This document shows positions 20,918-37,232 of a stretch of 42,950 bases of DNA, piece by piece. Below the pieces are notes generated by a model. It saw nothing but the letters and a program-made list of their open reading frames with translations. It made no database searches and was not told the DNA's origin. Made by a program: the position numbers and the translations under genes. This DNA comes from a virus. Taxonomy: Duplodnaviria > Heunggongvirae > Uroviricota > Caudoviricetes. The stretch's first letter is position 1. The number at the start of each line of letters is the position of its first letter. The stretch lies in the IMG/VR virus record IMGVR_UViG_2870479586_000005. One strand, 5' to 3'.

Positions 20918-21255
20918 TATTTCATCCCCTTATCTGATTTCCATAAACGAGCTTGTGACATGATCCGCAACAGTGATGTAACGCTGATTACTGATGCAAC
21001 CAGTGCACCAATGGCGGGAGAGACTTTTACTGTTACGGGAGGGTTCAGGTGACTCAGCACCGCGTTCAGAATACCGGTAATGATGGCTGATGCTGTTTCA
21101 GCGCAATACACACCACCAACAAATGAAATGAGTGCGAAAATAACCTGCTTCCAGAATCGATGCTGCCCGGATGACAACACATAGAGAGCTGCGCCTGCCA
21201 GCGCACAGATCATCACTGCAGGTGTTGCCTCAGGAAATAACGCAGCAAACGTCAC
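20917..21255 (-). CDS. Holin-like membrane protein (N-terminus possibly extends to 21299)
   Basis: 112 aa from a GTG start, multi-TM. An ATG at 21299 with an AGGA RBS opens a 15-codon frame (MSEPLTAGVAAGSAG). That frame joins in-frame if one base is added to the C4 run at 21255-21258. 383 nt + 1 = 128 codons. Confidence 0.55.
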   Translation of the reverse strand: MTFAALFPEATPAVMICALAGAALYVLSSGQHRFWKQVIFALISFVGGVYCAETASAIITGILNAVLSHLNPPVTVKVSPAIGALVASVISVTSLLRIMSQARLWKSDKGMK

Positions 21256-21314
21256 CCCGCCGAGCCAGCAGCAACGCCAGCGGTTAGAGGTTCAGACATG
21301 ATTTTTCCTGATTC

Positions 21315-21341
21315 AGAAACGACAAAACCCGCCGTGGCGAG
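21315..21341 (-). terminator. tR'-like intrinsic terminator upstream of the lysis genes
   Basis: Minus strand: CUCGC-CACG-GCGGG followed by TTTTGTCGTTTC, between the predicted late promoter and the holin RBS. Confidence 0.4.
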
Positions 21342-21409
21342 GTTCTTAGAGATTTGGCAACATACCAAATTAGCGTTAAATATGGCCTATTTTGTTCGGT
21401 TTTGCAAGC

Positions 21410-21438
21410 ATTATACGCAAACGTCGTCTAAATGGTTC
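21410..21438 (-). promoter_or_regulatory. Candidate late promoter (PR'-like) downstream of Q
   Basis: Perfect -10 TATAAT on the minus strand (plus 21410-21415). The -35 is weak (GAACCA at 17-nt spacing). Lies about 85 nt upstream of the terminator, the lambdoid PR'-qut-tR' layout. Confidence 0.35.
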
Positions 21439-21496
21439 TGATAATGATGCAAAGTTGCAAGAAGTGCCACTTCATCAAGTGCTCTCACCGCCTCTT

Positions 21497-22081
21497 TCAT
21501 TCCTGCCCAGTGCGGGAGTATGTTTCGCACCAGGTGGAACGAGAAACAGACAACATTCCAGCTAGCGCAGATCCGGCCATCTCCTTAAAATCCTCGCGTT
21601 TATTTGCTGCTGCGACCGCCTGCACGGACAACCACACCAACGAAAGCAGGCGCTTGACTACTTTTCTCTGAGTTGACGCAGAGATGTTTCCTTTATAGCG
21701 ACTCCAGACAGCCTCACAAATAGCTGTTTGGTGTTTGAACGCCAGGTTACCACCGTAGCAATAGCGCAACCACGCCTGCTGGCTAACGTCGAGCGCGTTC
21801 ACAGCGCGGCGCCACGATGAATCAGCGAATTCAAAATCATTCATCGGCGGCGCGGGGCGACGTCTGCTGAAACTTTCCAGGGCATAAACTGGCGTAACCA
21901 GAGCATCAACGGTCCGGTCCTCCAGTTGCACACGATGAATATGTTTGCGTGGGTATGCGTTTTTATCTGCTGGCGGGTGCTCACACAATGCTTCCAGTTG
22001 CCCCTTAGAACCACCAGACAAATCCCGCAATGCAGCGCGCAGTTTTATGCGGGTATATTCCAATAAATACTCGTTACTCAT
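21497..22081 (-). CDS. Late-gene antitermination protein Q
   Basis: 194 aa. ..QQAWLRYCYGGNL.. fits my recollection of the Phage_antitermQ family. Positioned just upstream of the late promoter and lysis genes. Confidence 0.75.
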   Translation of the reverse strand: MSNEYLLEYTRIKLRAALRDLSGGSKGQLEALCEHPPADKNAYPRKHIHRVQLEDRTVDALVTPVYALESFSRRRPAPPMNDFEFADSSWRRAVNALDVSQQAWLRYCYGGNLAFKHQTAICEAVWSRYKGNISASTQRKVVKRLLSLVWLSVQAVAAANKREDFKEMAGSALAGMLSVSRSTWCETYSRTGQE

Positions 22082-22374
22082 CAGATAAACTCCTCATCGC
22101 GCCAGATAGCCAGTGTTCTGAAAACTCCCTCAGCGTGCATCAACAGCAATGAGTCGTGCTCGTAATCCGTTTTTGTACGTCCGTCGATAGCATCGTGACA
22201 CGCACTACAGGCGATAGCGCCCTGCATATCGTGAGGTTTGATGGCTGTGCCGCACGTTCCGGCGAGACGATAATGAGCCAGTACGCTGGTTTCAGGATTG
22301 TGATTGCACACACCGGGGATACGCACAGTACAAGCGCGACCACGTGCAGCTTTTCTCAGGTCGATTTTTTTCAT
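22081..22374 (-). CDS. DUF1364 protein (DLP12 YbcO-like)
   Basis: 97 aa, Cys/His-rich (..CTVRIPGVCNHNPETSVLAHYR...CSACHDAIDG..). ATGA overlap with Q. Confidence 0.7.
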   Translation of the reverse strand: MKKIDLRKAARGRACTVRIPGVCNHNPETSVLAHYRLAGTCGTAIKPHDMQGAIACSACHDAIDGRTKTDYEHDSLLLMHAEGVFRTLAIWRDEEFI

Positions 22375-22967
22375 GATGTGTAATCCAGCAGCTGCGCGGC
22401 GGCATTTTCAGCGGCCTCCTGAGAGGCAAACGTGCGGAACAAAATATAATTCCACAGCACATCTAAAACGGCTGAATACAGTTGACCGAACTCAAGATCG
22501 TCCATCGCAGCAAACGAGATTGAACGAGGTACGCGCATCAAACTGCCGTCTGGCATCTGATGAACGTCATAAAACCCAGCTTCCATAATCGCCCATGCGC
22601 GAAACGCCTCGAACGACTTCACCGCACTGATATTCCCCGCGCGCTTTTCCGACTCATCGAGAAGATACTGATCAGCCAGCTCTGCCATGACATCACCGTG
22701 TCCACCGTAATACGCCAGTAACTTAACGTAGCCATGGACCAGTTCGCGCTCCGCAGGAGAAATAGCCCCTCCGGACGGATGCCAGTAATCAAAGCCCAGG
22801 TTTAGAAGTGAGAAAAATTTACGATGAAACGCGGGATTACGCGCCTGTTTGAAATCTGCATACACAACAGCACCTGGTTTGACTCGTTCAGTCAACCAGC
22901 GTTGCGTGTCTGGTGTCGCGGGTATTAGCGAACCGCCGGATACCCTGATAAATGAATGCTGCGCCAT
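22371..22967 (-). CDS. DUF1367 protein (DLP12 YbcN-like)
   Basis: 198 aa, directly upstream of the DUF1364 and Q genes as in DLP12-type prophages. Confidence 0.7.
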   Translation of the reverse strand: MAQHSFIRVSGGSLIPATPDTQRWLTERVKPGAVVYADFKQARNPAFHRKFFSLLNLGFDYWHPSGGAISPAERELVHGYVKLLAYYGGHGDVMAELADQYLLDESEKRAGNISAVKSFEAFRAWAIMEAGFYDVHQMPDGSLMRVPRSISFAAMDDLEFGQLYSAVLDVLWNYILFRTFASQEAAENAAAQLLDYTS

Positions 22968-23044
22968 GTTTAACTCCAGGTGGCGCGGCAGTGTTCAGAA
23001 AATGGTGCCGGGTGTTCAATCCAGCACCGATATTATACCGTGTT

Positions 23045-23224
23045 TTACGCGTCAGGGGGTGTAATAGTATATCCAGCTATTTCTGCCAACTCGAGAAACG
23101 CCATCAGGCTGGCAATCCGTTCATCATCAGTCAGAACACGCACACCAACGATGTGTCCGTCCTTACGCTTGATAACAGCCCGGCATGTTTCCGGTAGTTC
23201 GCCTATAGATTCTTGAATATTCAT
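23045..23224 (-). CDS. 59-aa ORF behind a LexA-box promoter (candidate SOS-induced small protein)
   Basis: Translated by hand (below the track cutoff): MNIQESIGELPETCRAVIKRKDGHIVGVRVLTDDERIASLMAFLELAEIAGYTITPPDA. A GGGGGAAG RBS lies 3 nt (GAC) upstream of the ATG. 180 nt including the stop. Confidence 0.45.
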   Translation of the reverse strand: MNIQESIGELPETCRAVIKRKDGHIVGVRVLTDDERIASLMAFLELAEIAGYTITPPDA

Positions 23225-23246
23225 GTCTTCCCCCTAACGCCATTGC

Positions 23247-23262
23247 CTGTGCATTTATACAG
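23247..23262. promoter_or_regulatory. LexA-box-like site CTGT-N8-ACAG
   Basis: gcCTGTgcatttatACAGta is an exact match to the CTGT-N8-ACAG core with an AT-rich spacer. It overlaps the -10 of the promoter below. Confidence 0.5.
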
Positions 23263-23282
23263 TATTTTATGGCATTTGTCAT
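23254..23282 (-). promoter_or_regulatory. Sigma70-like promoter for the 59-aa ORF
   Basis: Minus strand: ATGACA-17 nt-TATAAA, ending about 30 nt upstream of the ATG at 23224. Confidence 0.45.
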
Positions 23283-23375
23283 AACGCCAGATACAATGAG
23301 GGAATAATGAACAATTATATTCACGTCGTGAATTTTATTAAACGGTTTTATAGGGGATTAAACCGTTTATGGTCA

Positions 23376-24017
23376 TTATTTATCACTCCTGTAAATTGAA
23401 ATTAACCATTTTCTAATCGTCGACGCTGCAGGTGGGTCAGAGTATTTCGCCACAAAAATACCGGATATGTATTGCACACCACGCGATAATGGCGCTGTCG
23501 GGTTTTCAGTAAAAAAACGATCAGCCAGTTCAATGGCTTCGCTTTTTAATCTGTGCTGTGGCCGTCCTCCGCCCTTAGTGCCAAGGTAACGCGCCAGTTG
23601 TTTGAAACGGTAGGCGATGATTAACGGTCGCATCATCATATTGAAAAAATCTCGGGCATCGTTGTCAGCGCCTTGCGCTATCAACAGTGCAAAAAACAGA
23701 TACGGGATTGTGTACACTTCAGGAGATATACGAACCCGTTCACAAGTTGGTGGAGCCAACTCAATAAGTAAGTCAGCCAGCGGATCCCCCTTTTCTCCAT
23801 GTTTGTAATAGCGATACAGAGGCCCGATATCGAGTTCACTCACGTCAATTTCAGGATGCCCGGCAACGGTTGTACGTATCTCTTCTGCCAGAGCGTCAAA
23901 TATTACCCCGGTCCGCTCAAGATAGAGCCTCCGGGTCGAACCGCGATCATCCAACGCCCGTAACATATCTAACCGGCTTACGAAAGTTTCAGGCCAGTCC
24001 TCATAGAAAGTTTTCAT
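23376..24017 (-). CDS. Hypothetical protein (213 aa) with a possible C-terminal HTH
   Basis: Preferred start MKTFYEDW, with GAGG 5 nt upstream. The track ORF starts at a GTG at 24053. The C-terminal ..GGGRPQHRLKSEAIELA...ASTIRKWL.. is HTH_7-like by eye only. Confidence 0.55.
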   Translation of the reverse strand: MKTFYEDWPETFVSRLDMLRALDDRGSTRRLYLERTGVIFDALAEEIRTTVAGHPEIDVSELDIGPLYRYYKHGEKGDPLADLLIELAPPTCERVRISPEVYTIPYLFFALLIAQGADNDARDFFNMMMRPLIIAYRFKQLARYLGTKGGGRPQHRLKSEAIELADRFFTENPTAPLSRGVQYISGIFVAKYSDPPAASTIRKWLISIYRSDK

Positions 24018-24085
24018 AATTACCTCGAATAATAAAAACTGCATTATTTGCACAATTTATTATTCGTTTTCACATCGCAGGGTTC

Positions 24086-24115
24086 TATAAAAAAGAAAAC
24101 CCGCCGAAGCGGGTT
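24086..24115 (-). terminator. Rho-independent terminator after the 92-aa gene
   Basis: Minus strand: AACCCGC-TTCG-GCGGGTT followed by TTCTTTTTTA. Confidence 0.7.
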
Positions 24116-24135
24116 AGTTAATAAGTTACACCAGG

Positions 24136-24414
24136 TTATGAGGCCATACCGTAAGCTTTTTTATGCATCCCATGGTCATAGCCCATATTATATGCTTCAA
24201 AAGCATCTTTATGACGGACATGCCCAGCCTGGCTTTCGGGTAAATCACCTAAAACAGAGTCATCAACCGCACGCGGAACGCCGATTAATGCATGCCACAT
24301 ACCTTTATCATAGGCACATCCACAACACTTGTGCCGCCCAACGTTACCCTGATTTGCAGAAAGAACATCAAACATACTGTCGTGACGATGTGACTTTTTA
24401 CAGATGTGTTTCAT
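24136..24414 (-). CDS. Cys/His-rich 92-aa protein, monocistronic
   Basis: MKHICKKSHRHD...GRHKCCGCAYDKGMWH...HVRHKD...HGMHKK. Has its own terminator downstream. Confidence 0.55.
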   Translation of the reverse strand: MKHICKKSHRHDSMFDVLSANQGNVGRHKCCGCAYDKGMWHALIGVPRAVDDSVLGDLPESQAGHVRHKDAFEAYNMGYDHGMHKKAYGMAS

Positions 24415-24442
24415 TCATTGACCTATATCATTTTCGGTAATG

Positions 24443-24504
24443 AATGCTTTACACGGGATCCCGGTTGAGGTAATCTCCCAAACCGAGATCTCAACGAAAG
24501 CATT
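24443..24504 (+). other. Long imperfect hairpin (about 19 bp in three stacked stems)
   Basis: AATGCTTT(24443-50)/AAAGCATT(24497-504), GTTGAG(24464-69)/CTCAAC(24490-95), ATCTC(24473-77)/GAGAT(24485-89). Confidence 0.45.
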
Positions 24505-24522
24505 AACCGATGTTTTTGTATG

Positions 24523-24558
24523 GCCCTGACAGTTGGCGCTGTCAGGGCTTTCCCTTTG
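24523..24558 (+). terminator. Orphan plus-strand terminator-like hairpin
   Basis: GCCCTGACAG-TTGGCG-CTGTCAGGGC (10-bp stem) followed by TTTCCCTTTG. No plus-strand gene lies upstream. Confidence 0.5.
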
Positions 24559-24636
24559 ATGCGACTCTAAAAACTTCGCAACCTCCAGATCCTATCCAGG
24601 ACCAAGAAAAACTTCAATGAAAAGATCAAGTTAGAT

Positions 24637-24652
24637 CTGTATTTTTTTACAG
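24637..24652. promoter_or_regulatory. LexA-box-like site CTGT-N8-ACAG
   Basis: atCTGTatttttttACAGat lies in the 92-aa/ImmA intergenic region. On the plus strand it fills the 17-nt spacer between TTAGAT (24631-36) and TGTAAT (24654-59). Confidence 0.45.
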
Positions 24653-24882
24653 ATGTAATAAATCACACATGTAATAGCCTTCCCTTTCCGTTCTCATCTG
24701 GCCTCTTGTGGCATCCATTTTTTTAAGAAACATATGGACGCCTAAAAAACCACTAATGTCATGATTATCATGTATGTTTTTACTGGAAACATTGAGCCAT
24801 CCACAATGCAGCGTAAAAAGCAAGCAATTCACAAGATTTTAAAGTGATTTATCTGGAAGACTTTACTACTAACAGTTAATAT

Positions 24883-24927
24883 CGTACCAGAAGTGCAGAA
24901 TTTGCACTTTCACAGGAAAGTGGTACG
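24883..24927 (+). promoter_or_regulatory. Nested dyad symmetry in the ImmA leader
   Basis: CGTACCA(24883-89)/TGGTACG(24921-27) enclose AAGTGCA(24891-97)/TGCACTT(24903-09), about 55 nt upstream of the ImmA ATG. Confidence 0.35.
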
Positions 24928-24981
24928 GAACATGTTGTCTATATTTCGACCAACAATCGTAATGCAGTAACTGGAGGAGCT

Positions 24982-25470
24982 ATGGCTACCAACCCAAGAG
25001 AGCACGCCCGGCGAGTGCTGGACACGTTCTGGTGCGGGCGTGGTTTCCCTGTTGATCCAGCGAAAATTGCTCACGACATGGGATTAGATGTTTTTATTAC
25101 CGATCTTCCTGGGAAAGTTTCTGGCGCACTGATTAAACAAAAAGATCAAGATCCAGCGATCTTTCTAAACAGTGATGACAACAAAGTTCGTCAACGTTTT
25201 TCATGTGGGCATGAGTTGGGGCATTACATCGCCCGGCAAGCATCGCATAGTGATGAATATGAGTACGTTGATTTACGTGGCGAAACCGCAAGCGCCGGAA
25301 CGCATCCTGATGAAATTTTTGCGAACAAGTTCGCAGCAGAACTTCTGATGCCGGTTGATGAGGTCAGAAAACTGCACGCTGACGGCCAACCAAGTTATAT
25401 AATGGCGCATTATTTTGGCGTATCTGACGATGCGATGACTTATCGTTTAAAGAACTTGAGGTTGGGGTAA
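24982..25470 (+). CDS. ImmA/IrrE-family zinc metallopeptidase (M78/DUF955), stand-alone with no HTH
   Basis: 162 aa. HEXXH motif in ..FSCGHELGHYI.. and the downstream ..EIFANKFAAELLMP.. typical of the family. GGAGGA RBS. Confidence 0.85.
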   Translation: MATNPREHARRVLDTFWCGRGFPVDPAKIAHDMGLDVFITDLPGKVSGALIKQKDQDPAIFLNSDDNKVRQRFSCGHELGHYIARQASHSDEYEYVDLRGETASAGTHPDEIFANKFAAELLMPVDEVRKLHADGQPSYIMAHYFGVSDDAMTYRLKNLRLG

Positions 25471-25479
25471 CGCTTTAGA

Positions 25480-26085
25480 ATGCCATCGGATGACGATTTT
25501 AACAGCCGTTTCAAACAGGAAGTTGCACGCCGACTGAAGGATTCCCTCAACCTACACCGTCAGTTAGCAGAAGAGGTTGAGCCGGAGGACGATGAAACTC
25601 CGGTTCAGTCCCCTGATGAAACTTCACCTCTGCAAAAGATTTCGCACGACCCCAAAAAACCATCTGTCCGTATTCACGGAATAGCCAGAAAAAGAGCTGC
25701 CGAAGCTCGCAAAATGGCTGTAGCTGCGTCTAGCAAAAGAACTCCAACTGCTACACCATCTCAACAAGTCACCCGTACTGAGAGTAAAATCTTGACCGAG
25801 TTCACATCTGTGAAACAGGTGAGTTCACTTGATACCGAGCATGAGCGCAAACAACTCAACAACAAAGATTTTGAAGCTGAAATCGCTCTAAAAAAACGCT
25901 ACGGAAAATGGTTCCTGATAATCCTTGCTTGCCAACTTCTGATAATGAATGGGGTATTTATTGCCGACGGCGCAGGTAAGCTGGAATTTGAGGATTTAAC
26001 ACTACAGTTGTACATGGGCGGTACTTTGACAGAGGTATTCGGCCTCGTGCTGGTCGTGACAAAATACCTTTTTAAACGCAAGTAA
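25480..26085 (+). CDS. Protein with a disordered charged N-terminal region and two C-terminal TM helices
   Basis: 201 aa, starting 9 nt after the ImmA stop. About 140 residues are low-complexity and charged (Pro/Glu/Ser/Lys-rich). Then come KWFLIILACQLLIMNGVFIA and GGTLTEVFGLVLVVTKYLF. Confidence 0.7.
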   Translation: MPSDDDFNSRFKQEVARRLKDSLNLHRQLAEEVEPEDDETPVQSPDETSPLQKISHDPKKPSVRIHGIARKRAAEARKMAVAASSKRTPTATPSQQVTRTESKILTEFTSVKQVSSLDTEHERKQLNNKDFEAEIALKKRYGKWFLIILACQLLIMNGVFIADGAGKLEFEDLTLQLYMGGTLTEVFGLVLVVTKYLFKRK

Positions 26086-36016: not shown

Positions 36017-36493
36017 TCATGCATGGTGGCCTTGCGCAGTGCTTATCACTGCTCCTCGCGTCGCTACCAGCGCCGCTATTGCTTCGTCAATTTCCTGAAT
36101 AGTTAACTCTGGCGCGAAGTGGAGATGTACAGCGTTAATCGCTTCCACCCCTTCTTTTGCCGCCAGCGTTGCCAGCAAAACGGGATCGCCCGGCGACTCC
36201 AGACGCGCCCGCCGTTCTGCGGGTAGCACTGCTTTCATCACACTGGCCAGCACCTGAGTTTTTCGGCGCGCCGCCGTTGTCTCGCCACGTAACCAGCGAA
36301 AGATTTTCTGCCGGTTGTTGTTGATGGCTCTCCAGTCCACGTTGCCGTCCGTGTCCTCAAATTCATGTAGTCTCAACTCATCATTGCGTCCCTGACTGAA
36401 CCAGGCCCGGCAGATTTCAATCGTGACGAGTTCCTGCCCTGCCCTTGCCGCCCAGGTCAAAATCTCTTTTTGTAATTCCTCTTGGTTTTCCAT
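36017..36493 (-). CDS. YdaT-like protein (cII position)
   Basis: 158 aa, second gene of the rightward early operon after the Cro/YdaS-like gene, as in Rac-type prophages. Confidence 0.5.
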   Translation of the reverse strand: MENQEELQKEILTWAARAGQELVTIEICRAWFSQGRNDELRLHEFEDTDGNVDWRAINNNRQKIFRWLRGETTAARRKTQVLASVMKAVLPAERRARLESPGDPVLLATLAAKEGVEAINAVHLHFAPELTIQEIDEAIAALVATRGAVISTAQGHHA

Positions 36494-36552
36494 AGCGTCT
36501 CCTGTCGCTAAAAATTGATTACGCTTAATCAGATGTAATAAGCCGCCTTTTG

Positions 36553-36750
36553 CTAAGCTTTTTCATGTTTTGGAACATCGTAAAAAGTCGGGTCATATTT
36601 CAGTGCTCCATTAGTGATATGGTCGAGTCGAGCTGCTCGCTTTTCAGGAACTGTTGCCCCCCAACGAGTAACCGCCACTTGTGATATACCCAGCACCTTG
36701 GCTGTGGCTGTCTTTGAACCAAAAAAACTAATAACCGTCTCTGTTTTCAT
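36553..36750 (-). CDS. Cro-like HTH repressor (YdaS/Cro family)
   Basis: 65 aa. ..GSKTATAKVLGISQVAVTRW.. HTH. GGAGGA RBS. Divergent from the cI-like gene. Confidence 0.75.
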   Translation of the reverse strand: MKTETVISFFGSKTATAKVLGISQVAVTRWGATVPEKRAARLDHITNGALKYDPTFYDVPKHEKA

Positions 36751-36762
36751 AATTCCTCCGCG

Positions 36763-36813
36763 TAACTTTTGTTAGCAACATAAATACTAACGAAAGTTAT
36801 GTCAAGTTAACTT
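36763..36813. promoter_or_regulatory. OR operators (TAAC-N4-GTTA)
   Basis: TAACTTTTGTTA (36763-74) and TAACGAAAGTTA (36788-99), plus the palindrome AAGTTAACTT (36804-13). Confidence 0.55.
36777..36805 (-). promoter_or_regulatory. PR: TTGACA-17-TATGTT
   Basis: Perfect -35 on the minus strand. An operator half-palindrome pair occupies the spacer. Confidence 0.6.
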
Positions 36814-36818
36814 ATATT

Positions 36819-37232
36819 ATGAGGATGAAAAATTTGATGCTTAGCGACCGTTTATCTCAAAGACGCAAACAGCTTGGTCTAACCCAACAACAGCTTGCTG
36901 ATATGGTTGGAAGATCGAGTGTGAGCGTTTTTAAATGGGAAAGCGGACAAAATGAACCAAAGGGCCAGAACTTGTTGGCTTTGGCCAATGCACTCAAGTG
37001 TTCTGCCACATGGCTGCTTTTTGGTGACGAAGACCAGGCGCCAACTCCGGTAGACGAATTACCAACAGAGCTGGATTCACGTCAAAAAAGATTGTTAGAG
37101 TTATTTGATTCATTACCCGAGTCAGAAAAAGAAAAGCAACTAATTGAATTAGAAGATAAAGTTGAAAACTTTAATCGTTTATTTGAAGAGTTACTGGTTA
37201 CCAGAAAGAAACTAACCCCCACCAAAAAATAA
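36819..37232 (+). CDS. cI-like prophage repressor (XRE HTH) without an S24 peptidase domain
   Basis: ..LGLTQQQLADMVGRSSVSVFKWESGQNEP.. HTH followed by an acidic coiled-coil tail. At most 137 aa, with no LexA-like Ser/Lys domain. Start could be 36819, 36825 or 36837. Confidence 0.8.
   Translation: MRMKNLMLSDRLSQRRKQLGLTQQQLADMVGRSSVSVFKWESGQNEPKGQNLLALANALKCSATWLLFGDEDQAPTPVDELPTELDSRQKRLLELFDSLPESEKEKQLIELEDKVENFNRLFEELLVTRKKLTPTKK

Follow-up and report, generated by a model that had tools for sequence, protein, structure and literature searches.

How a prophage whose repressor lacks an autocleavage domain could be induced by DNA damage is the question raised by the 42,950-nt stretch of viral DNA analyzed here (IMG/VR record IMGVR_UViG_2870479586_000005), which is referred to as the window and to which all coordinates apply. 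The window is a lambdoid Escherichia coli prophage with its early-right and late genes on the minus strand. Attention was directed to a small open reading frame (ORF) of 59 amino acids (aa) located at 23045..23224 on the minus strand, with an ATG at 23224 and a stop codon ending at 23045, which is preceded by a predicted operator for the host LexA protein and followed by a group of genes ending with that of the antiterminator Q. On the basis of sequence comparisons, it is quite probable that this gene encodes an antirepressor of the GfoA/FsoA/Rem family whose promoter host LexA would keep closed in the lysogen.

The predicted LexA operator and its conservation

The box, its promoter, the Shine-Dalgarno sequence and the 59-aa ORF all lie on the minus strand, where the region around the first three reads ttATGACAaatgccataaaaTACTGTATAAATGCACAGGCaatggcgttAGGGGGAAGacATG. 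The original prediction for this DNA had placed a CTGT-N8-ACAG core at 23247–23262, and direct reading confirmed it at 23262..23247 within the 20-mer operator TACTGTATAAATGCACAGGC (23264..23245). A putative sigma-70 promoter (23254..23282) is composed of a -35 hexamer ATGACA (23282..23277), a 17-nt spacer and a -10 hexamer TATAAA (23259..23254) that sits inside the box. The overlap of box and -10 hexamer was therefore borne out as predicted, with both hexamers being conserved in the two E. coli sub-lineages. The G-rich ribosome binding site that had also been proposed for the ORF corresponds to the purine-rich Shine-Dalgarno sequence AGGGGGAAG (23235..23227), and such a purine-rich sequence occurs in all lineages of the family.

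The box was scored by means of a heterology index (HI) built from 26 E. coli LexA operators and symmetrised, with absolute values that are approximate. The site has an HI of 8.9, the best in the window, with the training sites spanning 2.3 to 11.9, and this value was equalled in 7 of 200 shuffled sequences. For the bare core pattern, two occurrences were counted in the window where 0.45 would be expected, and 6 of 100 shuffles had two or more. By shuffle statistics alone the box is only moderately significant, and it is its conservation across related loci, not the shuffles, that settles the matter. Two boxes had been put forward in the original prediction, of which only the first scored well. 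The second palindrome, ATCTGTATTTTTTTACAGAT (24635–24654, core 24637–24652), has an HI of 11.3, which was equalled in 40 of 200 shuffles. It is found only in the loci that share the accessory segment in which it lies (the window, L005 and L012) and has no convincing overlap with a promoter.

Related loci were gathered from IMG/VR (71 loci), from species-representative genomes and from one phage record, and 73 of them include the DNA upstream of the small gene. A first alignment (A1) proved too divergent to be used in a genome scan, and a narrower one gave only two species-representative loci. A box with an HI of 1.4 to 8.9 ends 19 to 29 nt before the small gene in 70 of these 73 loci. They represent at least three lineages, namely E. 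coli group A, with proteins 98–100% identical to that of the window, group B (approximately 75% identity) and a Klebsiella/Raoultella type (36–42% identity). Between lineages the upstream DNA cannot be aligned, with the exception of the promoter and the box. The promoter hexamers are kept as ATGACA-17-TATAAA or ATGACA-17-TATATA in both E. coli sub-lineages, and the sequence of the spacer varies. Boxes are also present at the homologous promoter of Gifsy-2, SEN34 and mEp237 (HI of 4.7, 3.7, and 4.1, respectively). The Klebsiella-type promoters and the dinI promoters of SEN34 and mEp237 have the motif GTGCTCTTAAA in common upstream of the -35 hexamer, which suggests that these promoters share a common ancestry.

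The locus is widespread. The 600-bp region at 22900–23500 was found in 444 of the 5,426 complete E. coli genomes and shares 97.7% identity with phage record ON470624, and the locus also occurs in many Klebsiella-type prophages. A literature search on vB_EcoM-705R4, the closest phage record, turned up no work on induction.

A number of variations of the operator were observed among these copies. Its right half (23245–23253 in the window) is polymorphic in E. coli copies with a 98–100% identical small protein (compared over L010–L021), with the alleles ATATACAGGT, ATGTACAGGT, ATGCACAGGT, ATGTACAGGC, and ATGCACAGGC. Their HI ranges from 3.1 to 8.9, with the allele of the window being the weakest, and this polymorphism may tune the threshold of induction. 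In some E. coli genomes ISEc53, an element of the ISL3 family, is found inside the LexA operator (L085 at approximately 1480–1500, from NZ_LR890693.1, with the same breakpoint in H31). The junction runs from ...GGGGAAGACCC to ATAAATATACAGGT..., and the candidate antirepressor gene is thereby parted from its -35 hexamer. Of the 444 genomes, as many as 25 show only partial matches. An enterobacterial-type LexA box with an HI of 4.0 is also present in OM816834.1 (L004/L007), a record named "Stenotrophomonas phage vB_SmeS_BUCT708". The early genes of this record resemble Klebsiella/Raoultella-type loci of IMG/VR, about a dozen of which have a small protein 98–100% identical to its own, and the stated Stenotrophomonas host looks doubtful.

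The 59-aa protein and the repressor it may inactivate

Although the ORF had been described as unannotated, this was found not to be the case, as RefSeq holds it as WP_001025459.1, a "hypothetical protein". The ORF is intact and identical in many genomes, and the ratio of nonsynonymous to synonymous substitution rates (dN/dS) between lineages is 0.15–0.24. It is a real gene under purifying selection.

The encoded protein matches PHROG 340, a family labeled as being of "unknown function", with an E-value of 1.6e-20. The same family is matched by FsoA of Fels-1 (1.1e-26), by the GfoA-type proteins of SEN34 (6e-21) and mEp237 (1.4e-20), and by Rem of the Qin prophage of E. coli K-12 (4.4e-21). By direct BLASTP, FsoA is the closest characterized sequence (E-value of 3e-8, 41% identity over 39 aa), while alignment of the family profile with hhalign gave probabilities of 97.7% with FsoA, 96.7% with the GfoA type and 85% with Rem. 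Given the shared PHROG and these alignments, the window protein belongs to a family with three experimentally characterized antirepressors. GfoA, GfhA, GftA, and FsoA bind and inactivate the Gifsy repressors, with those of the Gifsy prophages being under LexA control (Lemire et al., 2011; PMC3121763). Rem is the antirepressor of DicA and was found by PSI-BLAST from GfoA and FsoA (Ragunathan et al., 2023; PMC10448788).

The window protein and the GfoA type share a core consisting of a beta-hairpin, the motif DDE(H/R), a helix and a C-terminal GY-x-(V/I)-TPP. The AlphaFold2 model of the 59-aa protein has a beta-hairpin followed by a helix, with a predicted local distance difference test (pLDDT) score of 83. 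No significant match was obtained when this model was compared with the PDB using Foldseek or when a profile was searched against PDB sequences, and Pfam gave no family for the protein and no DinI match. Some relatives carry the precomputed tag PF27490.1. A profile search gave 459 clusters at an E-value of 1e-3 or lower, and the best 120 hits listed were all "hypothetical" or "uncharacterised". A function can thus be proposed for a widespread family of hypothetical proteins, and the label of PHROG 340 stands despite its three characterized members.

The identity of the reference sequences was established from published primers. Primers le154 and le162 (Lemire et al., 2011, Table S1; PMC3121763) encode MNSQQMM and ...EAGIRFEEISNVG, and FsoA is therefore the 78-aa ORF at L080:3494–3730. 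GfoA was represented by the near-identical copies of SEN34 and mEp237, found by blastn of the phage collection, in place of the 14028 sequence. The gfoA primer le163 matches the C-terminal coding sequence of the SEN34 and mEp237 genes at 97% and encodes ...RRLGYRVTPPSDI, which resembles the C-terminus of the window protein (...AGYTITPPDA). No match to the 3' end of gfoA was found in IMG/VR with either an exact or a degenerate search.

Compared with known systems, the locus resembles GfoA and GfhA of Gifsy-1 and Gifsy-3 in having the PHROG 340 core, a LexA box over the promoter, a short non-cleavable cognate repressor, and a gene immediately upstream of DUF1367 (irsA), followed by a nuclease and Q. 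It differs from them in its lack of dinI, in a length of 59 aa as opposed to about 77–82 aa, in an ATG as opposed to a non-canonical start, and in its promoter hexamers, with the -10 of the window lying inside the box and theirs at its edge. In Qin, rem too is found before the Q region and after the same AACCCGCTTCGGCGGGTTTT terminator, but no LexA box precedes it (the best regional HI is 12.2, elsewhere), and Ragunathan et al. (2023; PMC10448788) describe the signal that induces Rem as unknown. FsoA, although of the same PHROG, is controlled by the CI-type repressor of Fels-1 as part of the early-left operon, without LexA control, and is dispensable for the induction of Fels-1 (PMC3121763). 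This early-left context, with a long CI-like repressor a few kb away, is shared by weak relatives of the window protein that occur in Stx phages and ASU11.

GftA of Gifsy-2 has the same function class, and its gene takes an identical operon slot (LexA box, gene, DUF1367). However, GftA belongs to PHROG 4847, no BLASTP alignment with the window protein was obtained, and only the GfoA-type proteins bridge the two families, weakly (E-values of 0.01–0.04). Among LexA-controlled antirepressors of non-cleavable repressors are also Tum (coliphage 186) and AntC (N15), as cited in PMC3121763; the comparison with both was by description. Tum has 146 aa with a DinI-like C-terminal half, in contrast to the 59 aa of the window protein. 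The system is accordingly a dinI-less, short variant of the GfoA/FsoA/Rem module, the mechanism of which is already established.

The presumed target of the antirepressor is the prophage repressor, a DicA/GtgR-type protein of 137 aa (36819..37232, plus strand). Its lack of an autocleavage domain, as proposed originally, was supported by Pfam, which detected a helix-turn-helix (HTH) domain of type HTH_3 only and no S24 peptidase domain. The repressor aligns with GtgR of Gifsy-2 along most of its length (BLASTP E-value of 2e-11), is 51% identical to DicA, and carries a conserved C-terminal stretch, LPESEK...FNxLFEELL. A short repressor of 128–154 aa followed by a YdaT-like gene was found in 43 of the 44 LexA-box loci for which the immunity region had been captured. 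The sole exception is the mosaic locus L060 (IMG/VR 2767802184_000002), which has a 258-aa S24-like repressor. In the three family copies that lack a LexA box, the gene is part of an early-left-type operon. Long CI-like repressors are found within a few kb of two of these copies, which is the situation of FsoA in Fels-1, and the third (L066) offers no more than a weak CI-like hit and an HTH protein of 146 aa.

Two other genes in the window may be considered as the agents of induction, with the role of the 59-aa protein then being linked to DUF1367. One encodes an ORF6N-domain protein (30613–31449, minus strand) and the other an M78 ImmA/IrrE-like peptidase (24982–25470, plus strand). Proteins of the ORF6N/KilA-N type are often annotated as antirepressors, M78 peptidases of the ImmA type cleave HTH repressors elsewhere, as in the ImmA/ImmR pair of ICEBs1, and the small gene is invariably accompanied by DUF1367. 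However, the ORF6N gene has no LexA box before it, the M78 gene is part of a variable accessory segment absent from the closest genome, and the linkage to DUF1367 is equally true of the proven antirepressor genes gftA and gfoA. Induction by either protein is thus considered highly improbable. The M78 gene is followed by an ORF of 201 aa with a hydrophobic C-terminal stretch; both are on the plus strand (24982–26085), opposite to the phage operons, and belong to the accessory segment which the closest genome lacks.

Operon order, the hairpin before DUF1367 and Q

In the window, the LexA box and the 59-aa gene are followed after 77 nt by the genes of a putative operon on the minus strand. These are DUF1367 (22371..22967; Pfam E-value of 2e-78), which is of the Pfam family of the Gifsy irsA homolog STM1020, a putative nuclease of the DUF1364/YbcO type (22081..22374; 1.2e-41) and the antiterminator Q (21497..22081; 1.7e-32). 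The ORF is therefore situated directly upstream of the Q module, in agreement with what had been claimed for it. DUF1367 comes after the small gene in every LexA-box locus with captured downstream sequence, and in most of these a nuclease gene is next, and then a late regulator, which is Q or, in Klebsiella-type phages, an HTH protein.

The corresponding order in Gifsy-2 is LexA box, dinI, gftA, DUF1367 (STM1020; E-value of 4e-98), NinG and Q, while in SEN34 and mEp237 it is dinI, the GfoA-type gene and DUF1367, on to Q. The published Gifsy arrangement is LexA box, dinI, antirepressor and irsA (Lemire, Figueroa-Bossi and Bossi, 2011; PMC3121763). As DUF1367, of the irsA family, is the next gene wherever downstream sequence was captured, the 59-aa gene occupies the gftA/gfoA slot of the Gifsy operon. 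Its place is not in the immunity region but downstream of the genes for replication, with 13.6 kb between it and the repressor. The original proposal of a small LexA-controlled antirepressor is thus supported by homology, conservation of the box, operon slot and repressor type, and the 59-aa protein stands as a good candidate for that function.

A terminator, AACCCGCTTCGGCGGGTTTTCTTTTTT (24098–24115, minus strand), is near-identical to the one found before the LexA promoter in Gifsy-2, SEN34, and mEp237 and to the one ahead of rem in Qin. In the window this GC-rich terminator (24115..24098) is 0.85 kb upstream of the LexA promoter, with only an AT-rich hairpin directly upstream of the latter. 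Between the terminator and the promoter there is an ORF of 213 aa (PHROG 5215; 23376–24017), to which no function was assigned.

The interval between the 59-aa gene and DUF1367 contains a conserved hairpin, GGUGCUGG-AUUGAACAC-CCGGCACC (23004..23028, minus strand), which is followed by AUUUUCU (23003..22997). Its stem of 8 bp covaries, with compensatory changes, around an invariant loop UGAACA. In 1.42 Mb of loci there are 78 copies of the motif GGNNTGAACANCC, of which all but one are upstream of a DUF1367 gene and, where measured, 50 to 59 nt before its start. The hairpin is present in all lineages, including Gifsy-2, SEN34, and mEp237, and an Rfam scan of 21000–25500 gave nothing credible. 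It had been stated that there was no obvious terminator before the DUF1367-DUF1364-Q genes. This holds insofar as no canonical terminator is present, but it overlooks the conserved 8-bp hairpin and its AUUUUCU.

These features bear on another explanation, in which the LexA promoter mainly drives DUF1367-DUF1364-Q directly, bypassing the immunity switch, and the small protein is ancillary; such a role would be compatible with antirepression. It agrees with the lack of a canonical terminator between the promoter and Q, with the presence of DUF1367 after the small gene in all LexA-box loci captured that far and, in most of them, of the nuclease and late regulator thereafter, and with the placing of irsA in the LexA operon by Lemire et al. 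(PMC3121763). On the other hand, a function sufficient for the small gene is already supplied by its homology to three proven antirepressors, the hairpin with AUUUUCU could limit read-through, and gftA expressed alone suffices to induce Gifsy-2 (PMC3121763). Direct expression of Q is therefore judged unlikely to be the main purpose of the promoter.

The proposed mechanism and what weighs against it

Under the antirepressor reading, a LexA dimer on the operator would cover the start region of the ATGACA-17-TATAAA promoter together with its -10 hexamer. Following DNA damage, RecA would become active, LexA would cleave itself and the promoter would fire. The 59-aa protein would then accumulate and bind the 137-aa repressor, which does not self-cleave, probably via its conserved C-terminal region, which is common to heteroimmune repressors. 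The repressor would leave its operators (36493–36819), with early transcription and lytic development as the outcome, and the same transcript may run past the hairpin into DUF1367-DUF1364-Q. Prophages of this type are probably induced via LexA and an antirepressor and not by self-cleavage of the repressor.

A number of observations weigh against this reading. LexA binding, inducibility by the SOS response, and binding of the protein with release of the repressor are carried over by analogy from Gifsy-1, -2 and -3 and from the Rem-DicA pair of Qin. The protein has 59 aa, whereas GfoA, FsoA, and Rem have 77–83 aa, and approximately 20 N-terminal residues are absent from it. No dinI is present between the box and the 59-aa gene, an interval of 21 nt containing no ORF, and a phmmer search with DinI of Gifsy-2 found none in the 75 loci. 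The -10 hexamer TATAAA lacks the final T, and a consensus promoter scan demanding that T omits ATGACA-17-TATAAA. There is also a second promoter-like site, TTAATA-16-TATAAT (23341..23314, minus strand), located upstream of the box and not covered by it. Near-identical small proteins co-occur with at least four repressor types, and once with the 258-aa S24-like one. Covariation of small-protein variants with repressor types was tested as evidence for pairing and rejected, with no one-to-one pairing being seen that would prove the target. Lastly, the box of the window is the weakest of the family, with an HI of 8.9 as against 1.4–7.0, and its Q gene is frameshifted, such that this prophage copy may fail to complete induction.

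The frameshift is due to the loss of 1 bp in a run of C residues (CCCC to CCC at approximately 21514–21516) when compared to L001 and L005, and the truncated product has 194 aa with an altered end in place of 223 aa. Either the sequence is in error here or the window copy has a defective late-gene activator. Taken with the weak box, it raises the question of whether the module in the window is a decaying relic, with a degraded operator, a truncated or inactive protein and a frameshifted Q, in which control of induction has been lost. The finding of ISEc53 within the same operator in some E. coli genomes would fit with this. However, an HI of 8.9 is within the range of the working E. coli operators of the matrix, the ORF is intact, identical in many genomes and under purifying selection, and the deletion in Q falls in a homopolymer, where a sequencing error could account for it. 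Decay of the module is therefore quite improbable.

The spacer of the TTAATA-16-TATAAT site contains a perfect palindrome, TTCACG-a-CGTGAA. This palindrome, TTCACGaCGTGAA, is present as a single copy in the window, and a relationship to the repeats of the immunity region was considered and rejected, as the sequences are unlike.

The lack of one-to-one pairing between small proteins and repressors resembles the cross-reactivity of GfoA, which has been reported to act on two heteroimmune repressors. The co-occurring repressor types, which differ in their HTH domains, all share the LPESEK...FNxLFEELL stretch. Since near-identical small proteins meet with varied HTH domains but with this shared C-terminal stretch, the latter is likely to be the contact for the antirepressor, as far as can be judged by analogy.

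Whether the module goes beyond the Gifsy copy, either by having one antirepressor for many heteroimmune repressors or by having the hairpin RNA gate Q, is a more tentative matter, and these two possibilities, taken jointly, are somewhat doubtful. If the first were true, the antirepressor would recognize the C-terminal stretch of DicA/GtgR-type repressors of both E. coli and Klebsiella prophages, and a single SOS pulse could induce unrelated prophages resident in the same cell. If the second were true, the covarying hairpin would be a regulatory RNA setting how much of the SOS transcript reaches Q. The findings are of relevance to the induction of prophages by DNA-damaging antibiotics and to cross-talk between co-resident prophages. 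Their value is in annotation and in the extension of a mechanism already established, and not in a new concept.

One further feature was noted in this part of the window. A strong terminator-like hairpin (24522–24549, plus strand) has a stem of 12 bp, 7 of them GC, with no plausible plus-strand gene upstream of it.

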